A stretch of 64,000 nt of DNA from Acidobacteriota bacterium (GTDB lineage: Bacteria > Acidobacteriota > UBA6911 > RPQK01 > JAJDTT01): assembly GCA_965217775.1 (NCBI GenBank), contig CBDCJH010000002.1, positions 5,760,001-5,824,000 on the forward strand, written 5' to 3'. How positions within the stretch are numbered: the stretch's first letter is position 1; each line of letters begins with the position of its first letter. The position numbers were made by a program, and so were the translations under genes. A model generated the notes under the pieces. The model searched no databases, was not told the origin of the DNA, and saw only the letters and a list, made by a program, of their open reading frames with translations. Shown here one piece after another: positions 1 to 56,253 of this stretch.

Positions 1-102
1 CGCCGCCCCTGCCCACAATCGGTGTTGAGTCTCCAGGCGCCTTTCCTCCGCCGCATCGGTGCCAAGCAGATACGGTTCGTCCGACTCGAGGTGCTTGTCC
101 AT
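1..102 (-). CDS. N-terminus of probable class I SAM-dependent methyltransferase (partial, runs off window)
   Basis: Manual translation from ATG at 102 (AGGAAACG upstream): MDKHLESDEPYLLGTDAAEERRLETQHRLWAGAA. The 'YLLG..E..RL..Q' pattern is typical of this family's N-terminus. Confidence 0.5.
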   Translation of the reverse strand, partial: MDKHLESDEPYLLGTDAAEERRLETQHRLWAGAA

Positions 103-146
103 CGTTTCCTTCGCGGCGCTTTCATTGTTCTCGGACAGGCTCCTAG

Positions 147-217
147 CAGTCCGTGGTGAAAGTCCCGCGAGCACCGAGACCGTTCCTGCGCCCGCCGGAC
201 AAGGCGCGATGAGGGAG
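147..217 (+). mobile_element. MITE-like repeat copy 1, left part (interrupted by the IS110 element)
   Basis: CAGTCCGTGGTGAAAGTC...GATGAGGGAG matches the 5' part of the intact copy at 8256-8413; preceded by CTAG (143-146). Confidence 0.9.
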
Positions 218-272
218 TATCCATGTTGCAAATCTTCCGATTTTCCAGGGATTGTTTCCTCCCTGGTTAGAC

Positions 273-1226
273 TCATCCGACCGCCCTGACTGGCCGCGGT
301 GTCCACACCCGATCCTGGCTCAGCAGGACGTTGGCCAAAATCACCATCTTGCGCATGATCGCCGTGAGCGCCACCTTCGGCGCCTTGCCCCGCTCACGCA
401 GCTGGCGATACTTCTGGATGTAGTCCGGATTGTGTCGAATGGCGGTGAGGGCGGCCATATACAGCATCCGCCGCACCCGATGCCGGCCCCCGCGGATGAA
501 GCGACGTCCCTTCCAGGTCCCCGACTCCCGAGCCACCGGCGCCAGACCGGCCAAGCTGGCCACCGCCTTGGAGTCGATCTGTCCCAGTTCCGGCATCAGA
601 GAGAGCAGGCCCGCGACCGTGACCGGACCCATTCCCGGAATCGAAGTCAGCACTTCGGCTTTGCGCGCCAGCGCCGGATCGGCTTTCAGCAACTTGCGGA
701 ACTCGCCGTCCAGGGCCCGGATCTGGCGCTCAATCTGAGCCAGCCGCTGTCGCAAATGCCGCTTCACCATCGGGTGGCGCGCGTGGTGGCTCCGGTTGCG
801 AGCCGCCGTCCGATCCTTCACCAGCCCGTCCCGCGCCGAGATCAGTTCCTCCAACTGGCGCTGCGTGGGCGAGGACACGTCCACACGCCGCAACGGGAGC
901 GCCTCCCCCATCCGGGCCAGGATCCGGGCATCCACCGCGTCGGTCTTGGCCTCCTGGCCCAGCGCCTGCGCGAACCGCCGCGCCCGCATCGCGTTGACCC
1001 GAGCCAGCGGCAACCGAGCGGCCAGAGCTTCCTCCATCGCCCGGTGCCAGGGGCCCGTGGACTCATACACCACGCACCGGACCTCCGGTCCGATCCAGCG
1101 GGCCAGGGCCTGGAACCCTGCCGTGTCGTTGGGGAACCGCTTCGACCGTCCCGAAGGCCACTCGTGCACGTCCAAATGCGCCTTCGAGATGTCCACACCC
1201 ACCGTCTTTGAGGTATCTTGAGTCAT
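273..1226 (-). CDS. IS110 family transposase/recombinase (DEDD_Tnp_IS110 + Transposase_20)
   Basis: Motifs VGVDISK, YESTG and KTDAVDA give the DEDD tetrad. C-terminal SIPGMG and GLAPVARESG contain the catalytic Ser. AGGAGG RBS upstream. Confidence 0.97.
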   Translation of the reverse strand: MTQDTSKTVGVDISKAHLDVHEWPSGRSKRFPNDTAGFQALARWIGPEVRCVVYESTGPWHRAMEEALAARLPLARVNAMRARRFAQALGQEAKTDAVDARILARMGEALPLRRVDVSSPTQRQLEELISARDGLVKDRTAARNRSHHARHPMVKRHLRQRLAQIERQIRALDGEFRKLLKADPALARKAEVLTSIPGMGPVTVAGLLSLMPELGQIDSKAVASLAGLAPVARESGTWKGRRFIRGGRHRVRRMLYMAALTAIRHNPDYIQKYRQLRERGKAPKVALTAIMRKMVILANVLLSQDRVWTPRPVRAVG

Positions 1227-1235
1227 CTTTCCTTC

Positions 1236-1390
1236 CTCCTGTGCTTGTCGTGCGAGCCTTGACGCTCACGTATCCATTCAGGACGTTGGGAAAGACGGTG
1301 GCGGCCCCACTCCCTCCCGGCCCTTGACGGCCGGCATACATAACGGCCCGACCACCGCCGCCGAGGCGCCTCTGGCCAGAGGCGCCTCGG
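1236..1390 (-). ncRNA. Predicted IS110 bridge RNA (5' hairpin, target-binding loop, donor-binding loop)
   Basis: Perfect 30-bp palindrome at 1361-1390. Two internal loops are each capped by a GUCAAG hairpin (1323-1328, 1258-1263). Guides match the target (1334-1339, 1310-1316) and the donor (1270-1277, 1244-1249). Ends are approximate. Confidence 0.82.
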
Positions 1391-1660
1391 ATGGATCCTC
1401 CCAAAAGATCCCAACCCGTATCGGAATAACCCACCAGAAATCATGCCGGCGCCACCGAGCCAAGCCTGGACGATGGCTGGGTCACGGCCCTGCGCCTGCT
1501 GTCGCCACTGGCGGCGTTGACGGGGGCAGGGGGGGCCGGCCCCCCCTGAGACCCCCCGGATGCAAAGAGACACATACCCACTTGAAATCCCTGAAACGAG
1601 AGCCCCGAGGCCCCCTCGTCACCCGGAACCCGCCTGTGGAAAATCAAAGATTTCCCACAG

Positions 1661-1805
1661 GGTGCTCCCTTTTTGCTGACACCACAATCTGTACCCCCCC
1701 AAGAAGAAAGACAGACAAGAAATAACAGACAAGGGTGCTCCCTTTTTGCTGACACCACAATCTGTACCCCCCAAGAAGAAAGACAGACAAGAAATAACAG
1801 ACAAG
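1661..1805. repeat. Tandem duplication of a 73/72-bp unit at the IS left end, containing four ACAGACAAG copies
   Basis: GGTGCTCCCTTTTTGCTGACACCACAATCTGTAC(n)AAGAAGAAAGACAGACAAGAAATAACAGACAAG at 1661-1733 and 1734-1805; the units differ by one C in the C-run. Confidence 0.95.
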
Positions 1806-1892
1806 CATACCGGGAGTATGCGACCGAGTCGCAACGCAGTCCGCCGGGATGCAGGGACGGTCGAATGCCGTGGCGACTTTTGCCACGGGCTG
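1806..1892 (+). mobile_element. MITE-like repeat copy 1, right part
   Basis: CATACCGGGAGTATG...GACTTTTGCCACGGGCTG followed by CTAG (1893-1896), which duplicates 143-146. The two halves sum to 158 bp. Confidence 0.9.
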
Positions 1893-2312
1893 CTAGGTAA
1901 ACGTCGGAATCGCGAGCCCTTCGGATCGTCCGGCGGCGCTGAGCCGACGGTCCAGGGTTGCAAGAGGCAAATGCAAGCGGACCGCCAGTTCGAGATACGT
2001 GGCGTCGTAGACGGAGAGTCGGTGCTCCGTCGCCAGTTCAAGCGCAACATTCCAGACGCGGGACGTGGAAATCGGATCGATTTCGATCGGTAGTGCATCG
2101 AGAATTGCGTGAATTTGGCGCCAATCGCCCCTGGTGATCCGGCCCCGACGAGTCGCGATGAGGAGCACGTTTCCAACTTCGACGGGCCAGAGGGACGGAA
2201 CGAACGCCCTCCCCTCGATCAGCGATTCCCTTAGCTGATTCGTCGATTCCGTGGCCTCGTCGGGAAAGACCCACGCCATGGTCACCGAGCAATCGAGTAC
2301 GAACGCCATCAA
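1893..2312 (-). CDS. vapC: Type II toxin-antitoxin VapC family PIN-domain toxin
   Basis: FVLDCSV N-terminus, WPVEVGN, LSVYDATYLELA and LATLDRRL PIN motifs. Confidence 0.92.
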   Translation of the reverse strand: MMAFVLDCSVTMAWVFPDEATESTNQLRESLIEGRAFVPSLWPVEVGNVLLIATRRGRITRGDWRQIHAILDALPIEIDPISTSRVWNVALELATEHRLSVYDATYLELAVRLHLPLATLDRRLSAAGRSEGLAIPTFT

Positions 2313-2551
2313 TACTTGCGTCCCTCCTCGATCATCTGACGGACAGAGAGGCCAGCCAAGCTATGGGTCTCCTGAAACGCCTTCATACTATCGATCGCAT
2401 CCCGGATTTTTCCGGCGTCACGTGGTCTGAACGGAATCAACTCCGCCACCGGTCGATTGTGCTTCGTGATGACGAATCGTTCCCCCTCCTGCACGCGTTT
2501 CAGCAACCGCGACAGGTTCGTTTTGGCTTCGAATGCGCCCACTTCAGACAT
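2309..2551 (-). CDS. Phd/YefM family antitoxin
   Basis: VGAFEAKTNLSRLL..V..GE..VITKHNRPVAEL motif; overlaps the toxin start; GGAGGA RBS favours the ATG at 2551. Confidence 0.92.
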   Translation of the reverse strand: MSEVGAFEAKTNLSRLLKRVQEGERFVITKHNRPVAELIPFRPRDAGKIRDAIDSMKAFQETHSLAGLSVRQMIEEGRKY

Positions 2552-2584
2552 TCGACGATCCTCCATTATTCGCCCGGCAAGGAA

Positions 2585-2609
2585 ATAAACTATACTCAGA
2601 CTAGTTTAT
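2585..2609. promoter_or_regulatory. Probable autoregulatory operator of the TA operon
   Basis: AT-rich inverted repeat ATAAACTA-N9-TAGTTTAT just upstream of the antitoxin, overlapping a TATAGT -10-like hexamer on the minus strand. Confidence 0.55.
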
Positions 2610-2647
2610 ATGCGTGCTGTTTTCAATCCGCCGTCCGGAAAGGTCGG

Positions 2648-3631
2648 CTATTTCCTCTGCGGACCCGTCACGTCCCACCACATTCCTCCGTTCGTCGTTT
2701 TGAGCACGCCCCCCTCACCCCCGTAGTAGAGGGTCGGTGGAGTGGTCTTCGTATCGAAGACCAGCGTCCAGGTCCGGTTGGACCATTGCAGTCCGGCCGG
2801 CCGGAAGCGGGAACCCCCGTCGGTGCTTCGGAAGACGCCCTTCGTCGTTCCCGCGTAGACGTGACTCGGGGCGGCAGGGTCTACCGTCAGTGCCAGGATG
2901 TGCCGAGTCAGAGGCTCTTGCCCCGATATCCAGATCTGGCCCCCGTCCGTGGATTTGGAGACACCGCCAGAGTCGGTCGCTGCGTAGAGGACGCTGGGAT
3001 TCGACGGATCGATGGCGATGGCTCGAACGTCGATGTCGTACAAGCCGTTCCGATTCGCCGACCAGATCTCTCCGCCATCCGTCGATTTGTAGACTCCGTG
3101 CCAGGTGCCGGCATAGAGGATCCCCCTGTTGCCAGGATCACCGACGAGACAGCGTAGCGTCTTGTCGATCAGTCCCCGGTTCGCCTCTCGCCAGCTCTTC
3201 CCGCCGTCGACGGTCTTGAAGACGCCACCACCATCCGTCCCCGCATACACGATTTGCCCGTTCTGCGGATCGATGACCAGGCCGCGGATTCTCCCGTTGG
3301 TGATTCCGGAACTGGTGCGGGTCCATGACCGGGCCCCGTCTGTGGACTTGTACACGCCCATCTCGTAGGTGCCCACGTAGAGCACTTGCGGCTGCGACCT
3401 GTCCAGGATGATGGCGCGCGGAGAGAGCGCCTCGAGGCCGCTTGAGGGCCAGTTGTCCTTGCCGCCCGAGGTGGTTTTGCAGAGACCCTTGGCGGCGCCC
3501 GCGTACAGGGTTCCGGGATCCGTCGGGTGCAGCGCGATCGCCTGCGTCTCGCCGCCTCCTGGCGAACCCATCTGCGCCAGGCCCGGAACCTGGGACGACA
3601 CCGCTGCAAACATGAGCAGAAGAACTCTCAT
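2648..3631 (-). CDS. Secreted BNR/Asp-box (WD40/YVTN-like) beta-propeller protein
   Basis: Signal peptide; repeated G(V)YKSTDGG..W Asp-boxes; start overlaps the upstream stop (ATGA). Confidence 0.85.
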   Translation of the reverse strand: MRVLLLMFAAVSSQVPGLAQMGSPGGGETQAIALHPTDPGTLYAGAAKGLCKTTSGGKDNWPSSGLEALSPRAIILDRSQPQVLYVGTYEMGVYKSTDGARSWTRTSSGITNGRIRGLVIDPQNGQIVYAGTDGGGVFKTVDGGKSWREANRGLIDKTLRCLVGDPGNRGILYAGTWHGVYKSTDGGEIWSANRNGLYDIDVRAIAIDPSNPSVLYAATDSGGVSKSTDGGQIWISGQEPLTRHILALTVDPAAPSHVYAGTTKGVFRSTDGGSRFRPAGLQWSNRTWTLVFDTKTTPPTLYYGGEGGVLKTTNGGMWWDVTGPQRK

Positions 3632-8255: not shown

Positions 8256-8413
8256 CAGTCCGTGGTGAAAGTCGCGCGAGCACCGAGACCGTTCCTGCGC
8301 CCGCCGGACAAGGCGCGATGAGGGAGCATACCGGGAGTATGTGACCGAATCGCAACGCAGTCCGCCGGGATGCAGGGACGGTCGAATGCCGCGACGACTT
8401 TTGCCACGGGCTG
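8256..8413 (+). mobile_element. MITE-like repeat copy 2 (intact, 158 bp, TCAA target duplication)
   Basis: Imperfect terminal inverted repeats CAGTCCGTGGTGAAAGTC / GACTTTTGCCACGGGCTG, flanked by TCAA at 8252-8255 and 8414-8417. Confidence 0.92.
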
Positions 8414-41239: not shown

Positions 41240-41397
41240 CAGTCCGTGGTGAAAGTCCCGCGAGCACCGAGACCGTTCCTGCGCCCGCCGGACAAGGCGC
41301 GATTCGGGTGCATACCGGGAGTATGTGCCCGAATCGCAACGCCGTCCGCCGGGATGCAGGGACGGTCGAATGCCGTGATGACTTTTGCCACGGGCTG
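41240..41397 (+). mobile_element. MITE-like repeat copy 3 (158 bp, GTAG target duplication)
   Basis: Same terminal inverted repeats; GTAG at 41236-41239 and 41398-41401. Confidence 0.92.
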
Positions 41398-52260: not shown

Positions 52261-53238
52261 ATGGACAGGGCCGCTGCCATGGAAACGCCGTCCGGCAAGG
52301 CCGCGACGGATGAGAACTTCCCCGTCGGCTCCTGGTTGTTGCCGGCGCACCTGCGACCCCATATCGCGACCTTCTATGCCTATGCCCGGGCGATCGACGA
52401 TATCGCCGACAATCCTGACCTGGGTCCGGACGAAAAGGTCGAGCGACTGCTCGGCTTCGCCAAAGCGGTGAGTGGCGTCGAAACAGCAGATCCCGCCTTT
52501 CGAAAAGCACACGAGATCCGCCGGAGCCTGGTTGCGACGCAGATAACGCATCGTCATTGCGTCGATCTGACGCGTGCGTTCATACAGGATGCGACCAAAC
52601 TGCGCTACGCCGACTGGAACGATCTGCTCGGCTACTGCGTCCTCTCGGCGGCGCCCGTGGGCCGGTACCTGGTCGATCTGCATGGTGAGTCGAAAGCTGC
52701 GTATCCGGCCAGCGATGCTCTTTGCAACGCTCTCCAGATCCTCAATCACCTGCAGGACTGCGGGGATGACTACAGGGCGTTGAACCGCGTCTATCTGCCC
52801 CAGAACTGGATGGCGGCAGCGGGCGCCGGGGTCGAGGCGCTCGGCCGGAAGCATTCAACGCCGGCACTCAGGCAAGTGTTGGATCGGTGCCTCGATGCAA
52901 CCGATAAGCTGTTGGAGTCGGCTGATCGATTGCCGATCCGGTTTCGCAACCTTCGTTTCGCCATGGAGACGGCCGCGATCTTCGCCATCGCCAAGAAGCT
53001 CGGTGCTGAGCTGCGCGGGCGGGACCCCCTGGCGGAACGAGTCGTGCTGACCAAGGTGCAGTATGCGGCCTGCATCCTACGCGGAGTCGGTCGGGTTCTG
53101 GACCGAAGGGTCTGGCGGCGGCGCCATCCGGCGGCGGCGCGCCCCTTGCAGTCCGTAGTGAAAGTCACGCGAGCACGGAGACCGGTCCTGCGCCCGCCGG
53201 ACAAGGCGCAACGGACGGAGCATACCGGGAGTCTGTGA
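52261..53238 (+). CDS. hpnC: Squalene synthase HpnC (C-terminus extended into a MITE)
   Basis: ENFPVGS.LLP, YAYAR..DDIAD, YC..SAAPVGR and ALQILNHLQD motifs. Confidence 0.92.
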   Translation: MDRAAAMETPSGKAATDENFPVGSWLLPAHLRPHIATFYAYARAIDDIADNPDLGPDEKVERLLGFAKAVSGVETADPAFRKAHEIRRSLVATQITHRHCVDLTRAFIQDATKLRYADWNDLLGYCVLSAAPVGRYLVDLHGESKAAYPASDALCNALQILNHLQDCGDDYRALNRVYLPQNWMAAAGAGVEALGRKHSTPALRQVLDRCLDATDKLLESADRLPIRFRNLRFAMETAAIFAIAKKLGAELRGRDPLAERVVLTKVQYAACILRGVGRVLDRRVWRRRHPAAARPLQSVVKVTRARRPVLRPPDKAQRTEHTGSL

Positions 53239-53307
53239 CCGAGTCGCAACGCAGGCCGCCGGGATGCAGGGACGGTCGAATGCCGTGACGACTCGCACCA
53301 CGGGCTG
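53149..53307 (+). mobile_element. MITE-like repeat copy 4 (diverged; overlaps hpnC 3' end)
   Basis: CAGTCCGTAGTGAAAGTC...GACTCGCACCACGGGCTG; flanks CTTG/CTAC are imperfect. Confidence 0.88.
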
Positions 53308-56093: not shown

Positions 56094-56253
56094 CAGCCCG
56101 TGGCAAAAGTCGTCACGGCATTCGACCGTCCCTGCATCGTGCGCGGACTGCGTTGCTATCGGCTCACATACTCCCGGTATGCTCCCTCCGTTGCGCCTTG
56201 TCCGGCGGGCGCAGGAACGGTCTCGGTGCTCGCGCGACTTTCACCACGGACTG
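56094..56253 (-). mobile_element. MITE-like repeat copy 5 (inverted)
   Basis: Reverse complement of the repeat; flanks TTAG/TCAG; the left flank includes the STAS stop codon. Confidence 0.9.

Follow-up and report, generated by a model that had tools for sequence, protein, structure and literature searches.

A stretch of 64,000 nucleotides from the genome of a sponge-associated acidobacterium was analysed (hereafter the window; G000:C2:5760001-5824000, where G000 is the source genome, 6.43 Mb with 62% G+C). At positions 218-1805, on the minus strand, it carries a 1588-bp element that is very probably an autonomous insertion sequence (IS) of the IS110 group, with a recombinase directed by a bridge RNA to a 12-bp site in a MITE (miniature inverted-repeat transposable element). 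This reading is carried by the anatomy of the element, by its fidelity to one site over eight insertions in two genomes, by the complementarity of the guides to target and donor, and by the covariation of the left guide with the left flank. In the proposed mechanism, a bridge RNA encoded directly upstream of the recombinase gene would direct the recombinase. The target-binding loop of this RNA would read the 12 bp GTATG-CT-CCCTC (given on the IS strand), to which the left and the right target contribute 5 bp each around the CT core, and the donor-binding loop would read ATGGATA-CT-TGTC, the sequence formed when the IS ends are joined. A circular form of the IS would then be inserted into the MITE by recombination at the CT core, in one orientation and with no duplication beyond the core. 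In G000 the intact target site exists solely in the central hairpin of the 158-bp MITE, which would offer the IS about 90 gene-neutral landing sites, four of them filled. By analogy with IS621 and its relatives, the RNA would be made and bound by the recombinase, excision would proceed via a circle, and strands would be exchanged at CT.

The interrupted MITE and the insertion sequence

Across positions 143-1896 the order of sequences is CTAG, 71 bp of a repeat, the 1588-bp insert, 87 bp of the same repeat, and again CTAG. The original prediction, made on the letters of the window, had claimed that removal of 218-1805 restores a 158-bp MITE with CTAG on either side, and this was reproduced by joining 143-217 to 1806-1896; all its other statements on the sequence could be reproduced too. 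The rejoined MITE is 96.8, 93.9, 92.7 and 89.8% identical to the four other full-length copies in the window, and it also matches 213 full-length copies genome-wide. Its 4-bp target-site duplications can be read directly from the sequence at 143-146 and 1893-1896. By copy comparison, the left part of the split MITE (147-217, plus strand) begins with a terminal inverted repeat at 147-164 and ends in the 7 bp GAGGGAG; on the IS strand these make up the right half of the target, core included. The right part (1806-1892, plus strand) opens with the hairpin CATAC-CGGGA-GTATG and closes with the other terminal inverted repeat (1875-1892). One arm of this hairpin forms the left target half of the IS. 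The hairpin had been noticed before, and it is found in all MITE copies. Both junctions, at 216-217 and 1804-1805, show the core dinucleotide AG, which is CT on the strand of the IS; this CT bounds the element, with an ambiguity of 2 bp.

The four copies of the IS in G000 are 99.8-100% identical to one another. They lack terminal inverted repeats: the ends CTTGTCTG... and ...ATGGATA are not inverted repeats, and the CT core is present at both junctions of all four. In the window copy, all parts of which lie on the minus strand, the recombinase gene (273-1226) encodes a protein of 317 amino acids with a DEDD/RuvC-like domain (PF01548, DEDD_Tnp_IS110; E 1.5e-19) and a Tnp domain (PF02371, Transposase_20; E 8e-21). 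PDB chains of IS621 and ISCro4 match this recombinase at E 6e-28 to 8e-28, and the catalytic D, E, D, D and the Ser-Gly pair align identically with those of both proteins (motifs vgvD, vyEstg, ktDavDar and reSG). The corresponding catalytic residues reported for IS621 are D11, E60, D102, D105 and S241 (PMC11208158). Upstream of the gene lies the left end (LE; 1227-1805), 579 nt and non-coding. Downstream lies the right end (RE; 218-272), 55 bp, which ends in ...TTGCAACATGGATA and contains the left-donor sequence. A TTGCAA in the RE resembles a -35 box, a promoter reading made by eye only, and the joined IS ends would read TTGCAA-17 nt-TATTTC, likewise by eye. With 55 nt downstream of the gene and 579 nt upstream, the layout is that of the IS110 group and not that of the IS1111 group, as the two are described in PMC11208160 and PMC11187229. 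Assignment to the IS1111 group was rejected on the shortness of the RE, on the position of the guides upstream of the gene, and on the lack of subterminal inverted repeats. A search of genome contigs returned eight related loci, three from a metagenome-assembled genome resembling the congeneric sister genome G007 and the others at 33-52% identity.

The predicted bridge RNA and its guides

The 150 nt ahead of the ribosome-binding site are predicted to fold into a 5′ hairpin followed by two stem-loops with internal loops, with a z-score of -5.35 against 200 shuffles. In the minimum-free-energy fold, the predicted bridge RNA (1238-1390, minus strand) consists of a 5′ stem-loop at 1361-1390, a target-binding stem-loop at 1294-1359 and a donor-binding stem-loop at 1238-1282. 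The fold is conserved in eight distinct sequences of the genus, and compensatory changes are predicted for the consensus pairs 46-89 and 128-139.

Within the two stem-loops (1238-1359) the sequences GTATGC-hairpin-GAGGGAG and ATGGATAC-hairpin-GACAAG occur, and the four candidate guides were read from them, all on the minus strand. The left target guide GUAUGC (1334-1339) equals the top strand GTATG plus the first core base, and the right target guide GAGGGAG (1310-1316) is the reverse complement of CT+CCCTC. The left donor guide AUGGAUAC (1270-1277) equals the RE end ATGGATA plus C, and the right donor guide GACAAG (1244-1249) is the reverse complement of the LE start CT+TGTC. The matches are thus 6+7 nt for the target and 8+6 nt for the donor. 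In 20000 dinucleotide shuffles of the LE, the paired arrangement of target guides arose by chance 5 times and that of donor guides 0 times. Rfam matches to Xoo5, mir-255 and mascRNA were at chance level and were rejected.

Several points weigh against the bridge-RNA reading. The left target guide pairs with five non-core bases and one core base, fewer than the 7+2 of IS621, and the second core base is unmatched in both left guides, target and donor. About 415 nt separate the start of the fold from the LE tip (about 343 nt where the duplication described below is absent), as compared with an LE transcript of about 177 nt in IS621. A promoter scan of 150-1900 gave no sigma-70-like site in the linear element; three terminator-like sites were found. 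A search of window positions 1-3000 at E up to 1 found no relevant match in Rfam 15, a result of low weight because Rfam 15 may hold no bridge-RNA family. Contigs of two sponge metatranscriptome libraries and of two other sequencing runs cover the IS, but as a sign of expression this cover is open to DNA carry-over. No RE-LE circle junction appears in the contigs of these four runs, which says little since contigs drop rare forms.

One 156-nt contig from the RNA libraries spans 1242-1397, near the predicted RNA at 1238-1390, and is a weak hint, as contigs come without ends, strand or level. Its depth differs from that of the contigs over the gene, again a hint only. Gaps in the RNA-library cover at 720-781 and beyond 1588 of the IS are uninformative. 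Contig joints that skip 1588 bases were considered as traces of excision and rejected; they are other, empty MITE copies.

Fidelity to a single site

All four IS copies in G000 sit at the same MITE position and in the same orientation, in four different MITEs with the flanks CTAG, CCGG/CCGA, TTAA and GTAA. G007 has four copies of an 89%-identical IS, again at the same MITE site and in the same orientation. For three of them both junctions are visible; the fourth runs into a contig end, and the MITE sequence beside its RE can be matched to within 12 bp of the junction. Flanking sequences in G007 are 93-97% identical to G000, and the four loci map to places in G000 other than its IS sites. Thus, the eight copies represent separate insertions. 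The original prediction was of an IS110-family element guided by RNA to a non-autonomous element of many copies; the use of the same site by eight copies of eight, the guide matches and the covariation described below bear it out. It had also named IS copies at unrelated sites as a contrary outcome, and there were none among the four copies of G000 and the four of G007.

From base composition, 0.87 occurrences of the intact 12-mer GTATG-CT-CCCTC would be expected in G000; there are 89, each of them inside a MITE hit. The MITE is therefore the sole address for the guide in G000, with 4 of 93 sites filled. Two of the empty sites are in the window, in MITE copy 2 (8256-8413, plus strand; intact 12-mer at 8320-8331) and MITE copy 5 (56094-56253, minus strand; intact 12-mer at 56177-56188). 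Both had been put forward as full unoccupied sites, and their cores are indeed at 8325-8326 and 56182-56183.

Covariation of guide and flank in related elements

Relatives of the IS across the genus keep the IS ends and the donor loop, and their left target guide changes together with the left flank, a pattern followed through five lineages. With a slash before the core, the guide and flank read GTATG/C in this IS and its 89% relative, ACCGCCG/C in R1, R4 and G006, GTCGCCG/CT in R3 and G004, GACGCCG/CT in G003, and CACGCCG/CT in G001. The sole exception is R2, which has one mismatch to its own flank. The right guides of the relatives match 4-7 bases including the core. On sequence comparison, this covariation provides the strongest support for the putative guide function.

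One of these sister elements is also present in G000 (G000:C2:1161105-1162660, 2744275-2745830, 2676739-2680150 and 4662165-4665574). Its recombinase is 55% identical in amino acids, its IS ends and donor loop are the same, and it sits directly 3′ of hairpins resembling repetitive extragenic palindromic (REP) sequences, CGGCGNC-loop-GNCGCCG/CT. Two of the four copies are about 3.4 kb long as against about 1.55 kb, with about 1.9 kb of extra sequence between the gene and the RE, and the target loop of these two is different.

The LE itself varies. Its outermost unit is duplicated in tandem in the window copy (1661-1805, minus strand; 72 + 73 bp), and each unit starts with CT TGTCTG. The duplication is present in two of the four G000 copies and absent from the G007 copies, and the single-unit form is also found in contigs of the sequencing runs. 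The inner boundary of the duplicated LE reads GCACC/CT/TGTCTG as against GCACC/CT/GTGGG in the unduplicated form; it thus falls at a CT, with the right-donor half-site alone kept. Donor matches of a similar one-sided kind, at the boundaries of repeat units, are described in a preprint (10.64898/2026.08.14.744561). Further inward, the stretch at 1517-1711 (IS coordinates 95-289) is 77-80% identical to a subterminal part of a different multicopy IS in the sister genomes (loci L013-L026), the end of which reads TGAGGGTGTCCCGTTTTCGTGGACGG. The long LE recurs at 85-87% identity in IS110 elements of G003 and G001, whose recombinase is nevertheless of the sister type. From these sequence comparisons, LE modules seem to be exchanged between elements.

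The MITE and its parent

The MITE is 158 bp long and non-coding, with 18-bp inverted ends, CAGTCCGTGGTGAAAGTC and GACTTTTGCCACGGGCTG. The set used here consists of 213 full-length copies and the 4 restored occupied ones, 217 in all in G000, and target-site duplications were counted on the 209 copies whose ends are canonical. Among these, the two 4-bp flanks are identical in 153 and agree at three of four positions in another 36; the motif is NTAN, with a central TA in 148 of 209. Three to four elements of 1468-1476 bp in G000 share the MITE ends. The one examined is 1475 bp long, is flanked by a CTAG duplication, and has an open reading frame with a DUF772 match (E 1.5e-17) and weak DDE hits below the cut-off; the C-terminal DDE part lies in another frame. 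By its sequence this parent element is IS5/IS1182-like, and the MITE is judged to be derived from an IS5-like element. The inverted ends, the 4-bp duplications and the parent with the same ends led to the rejection of a structured RNA gene or a REP sequence as the nature of the 158-bp repeat. At one locus where G007 has a MITE (L002), the flanks abut within about 41 bp in G000 and the MITE is absent there, which points to recent MITE movement.

Derivatives of the MITE were also observed. Four of about 103 bp lack the central 54 bp or so, that is, the hairpin and the IS target (G000:C2:985931-986033, 3579131-3579227, 4889631-4889733 and 5007956-5008058). In G007 the orthologue of the derivative at 985931 is a full-length MITE occupied by the IS (L012). 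Head-to-tail MITE copies that share one TTAA are found at G000:C2:2174454-2174780 and in run X1 (joint 1892 to 147), and the shared TTAA looks as if one MITE had inserted at the duplication of another.

Target variants: escape or subfamily turnover

Among the 217 copies, 88 carry the perfect 12-mer, 86 read TCGGGTG-CATAC, 20 read TCGGGAG-CATAC and 23 have other forms. Two of the window copies are of interest in this respect. MITE copy 3 (41240-41397, plus strand) belongs to the TCGGGTG subfamily and differs at 3 of the 12 target positions, including the first core base. MITE copy 4 (53149-53307, plus strand) has GACGGAG, a private one-base difference in the right-guide segment that is a singleton among the 217. 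The sequences given for them in the original prediction were reproduced as GAT-TCGGGTG-CATAC and GACGGAG-CATAC. Its proposal that copy 3 is an escape variant was not supported as it stood: the form of copy 3 is that of the largest MITE subfamily (86 of 217), a linked haplotype present in all nine genomes of the genus compared here.

It has to be considered, then, whether an arms race is under way, in which forms beyond the reach of the IS, namely the TCGGGTG subfamily and single variants like copy 4, would have spread for that reason; the diversity of the target would then be a trace of selection against insertion. The three target columns that vary most, 79, 80 and 84, belong to the top four for variability in the 158-bp MITE. 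Copies of the non-target subfamily differ from one another by 2.0% on average, as compared with 7.3% among copies that bear the target, which makes this subfamily the youngest. The ratio of non-target to target copies is 87:73 and 40:24 in the two IS-bearing genomes as against 5:78 in G006, which lacks the IS; in the other genus genomes it is 10:13, 2:11, 1:5, 2:3, 3:3 and 3:1. However, the two IS-bearing genomes, G000 and G007, are close kin, as their flanks of 93-97% identity indicate, so that this contrast amounts to about one observation. Moreover, TCGGGTG is one linked haplotype and not the product of repeated independent hits, with markers outside the target (103C in 74 of 86, 118C in 67 of 86, 154T in 66 of 86), and its presence throughout the genus includes seven genomes without a detected full copy of this IS. 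With A103C added, the changes at 79, 80 and 84 close the interruption in the stem and yield a 17-bp hairpin that contains two G-T pairs, a structural explanation that needs no IS. With 4 of 93 sites filled, the pressure on the MITE would also be small.

The diversity of the target, which had been suggested as a check, gave a divided answer. The 12 columns of the target hold more rare variants (3.58 per column versus 1.92; Mann-Whitney U test, p 0.004), but columns 112-126, which lie beyond the target, are just as rich in them, and among 147 windows that of the target ranks only 21st. An arms race is an unlikely account of the variants. The same degree of doubt attaches to the wider picture in which the bridge-RNA IS parasitises one MITE lineage while the hairpin-remodelled subfamily, immune to it, has had the most recent and largest burst in the IS-bearing genomes. 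Selection against insertion is neither needed to explain the form of copy 3 nor excluded.

Other routes of spread

The IS might have inserted once and then spread as a passenger, as a 1.75-kb MITE-IS composite moved by the IS5-like transposase. Both MITE ends are intact in all four composites, each with its own 4-bp flank, and a parent element with matching ends is present in G000. However, copying as a unit should leave the MITE and IS parts equally similar, whereas the MITE bodies differ at 3-4 of 158 positions and the ISs at 1-4 of 1515 (Fisher p 0.0004-0.02 per pair), which indicates separate IS insertions into already diverged MITEs. In addition, two of the IS-bearing MITEs in G007 are of different subfamilies (flanks TTCGG-GAGGGAG and TCT-GAGGGAG), and in the examined parent copy the C-terminal DDE part is out of frame, so that an intact transposase is a candidate at most. 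The idea that the MITE transposase could move the composite, raised in the original prediction, is possible in principle, but the divergence of the two parts fits separate insertions, and such a history of these copies is very improbable. Homologous recombination or gene conversion via the 71-bp and 87-bp MITE arms is a highly improbable means of spread: with MITE copies 90-98% alike it would give the same position and orientation every time, but the occupied MITEs differ 10 bp from the junction (GTATGC in copy A versus GTATGT in the others), which would require very short tracts, and it leaves unexplained both the upstream RNA loops that match target and IS ends and the guide-flank covariation in sister ISs that sit in a different repeat.

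Relation to known systems

The element, read as a bridge-RNA-directed IS, resembles IS621 of Escherichia coli in many respects. It has the same two domains with aligned D, E, D, D and S, a long LE upstream of the gene and a short RE, and a CT core. The predicted LE-encoded RNA has the same order of 5′ stem-loop, target loop and donor loop, and, as described for IS621 (PMC11208160), the left guides have the sequence of the top strand and the right guides that of its complement. In both cases the target is a multicopy extragenic repeat. The two differ in that the protein similarity amounts to about 100 bits only, in that IS621 targets REP sequences whereas the target here is a MITE mobilised by a transposase, in the pairing (5+2+5 here versus 7+2+2 for the 11-bp site of IS621, ATCAGGCCTAC), and in the LE, which is 579 nt here with about 340-415 nt ahead of the RNA fold.

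In Pseudomonas putida, every copy of ISPpu9 and ISPpu10 is reported at one position of a palindromic repeat, with a dinucleotide common to the IS end and the target (PMC12288879), and a stem-loop lies directly 5′ of the target (PMC12288879; preprint 10.64898/2026.03.19.712850). Similarly, the left target of this IS and of the sister ISs is the 3′ arm of a hairpin. Their repeats, however, are REP sequences or bacterial interspersed mosaic elements, whereas the present repeat is a MITE, which has an IS5-like parent as well as inverted ends and a 4-bp duplication. REP sequences are frequent as targets. Aim at another mobile element within the same superfamily has been described for IS4321 and IS5075, which target the inverted ends of the Tn21 family, and for ISPst6 and ISKpn4, which target integron attC sites (PMC11187229, PMC11208160). 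Unlike the present element, with its non-coding region upstream of the gene, these belong to the IS1111 group and have subterminal inverted repeats and a downstream guide RNA; their targets are on plasmids and transposons, whereas here the target is a chromosomal MITE of 200 copies. Full-text searches within the literature libraries consulted found no paper on an IS110-family element aimed at a MITE, though the supplements of PMC11187229 and PMC11208160 may list MITE-like targets.

The targeting mechanism itself is already known, and the element is a clear natural example of it, in which every testable feature of the family is present. It extends the landing of IS110/IS1111 elements in repeats and mobile elements (REP sequences, attC sites, Tn21 ends) to a transposase-mobilised MITE, in Acidobacteriota. 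It also offers a natural data set on bridge-RNA targeting: eight independent insertions, 89 empty perfect sites and over 100 natural near-cognate sites that have 1-3 mismatches, a core mismatch among them, all sharing a single sequence context and a single genome. This set could serve as a panel for the specificity of the recombinase.

Neighbouring genes

Two further observations concern genes near MITE copies. A third IS110-like gene, present as a single copy (G000:C2:4367322-4368206; 47% amino acid identity), has a bridge-RNA-like upstream region and lies about 170 bp from a full-length MITE. In the window, a PIN-domain / Phd-YefM toxin-antitoxin pair (1893-2566, minus strand; Pfam E 4e-10 and 3e-12) adjoins the interrupted MITE. 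The right CTAG of this MITE and the stop codon of the minus-strand PIN-domain gene overlap, so that the end of the reading frame was left intact by the MITE insertion.

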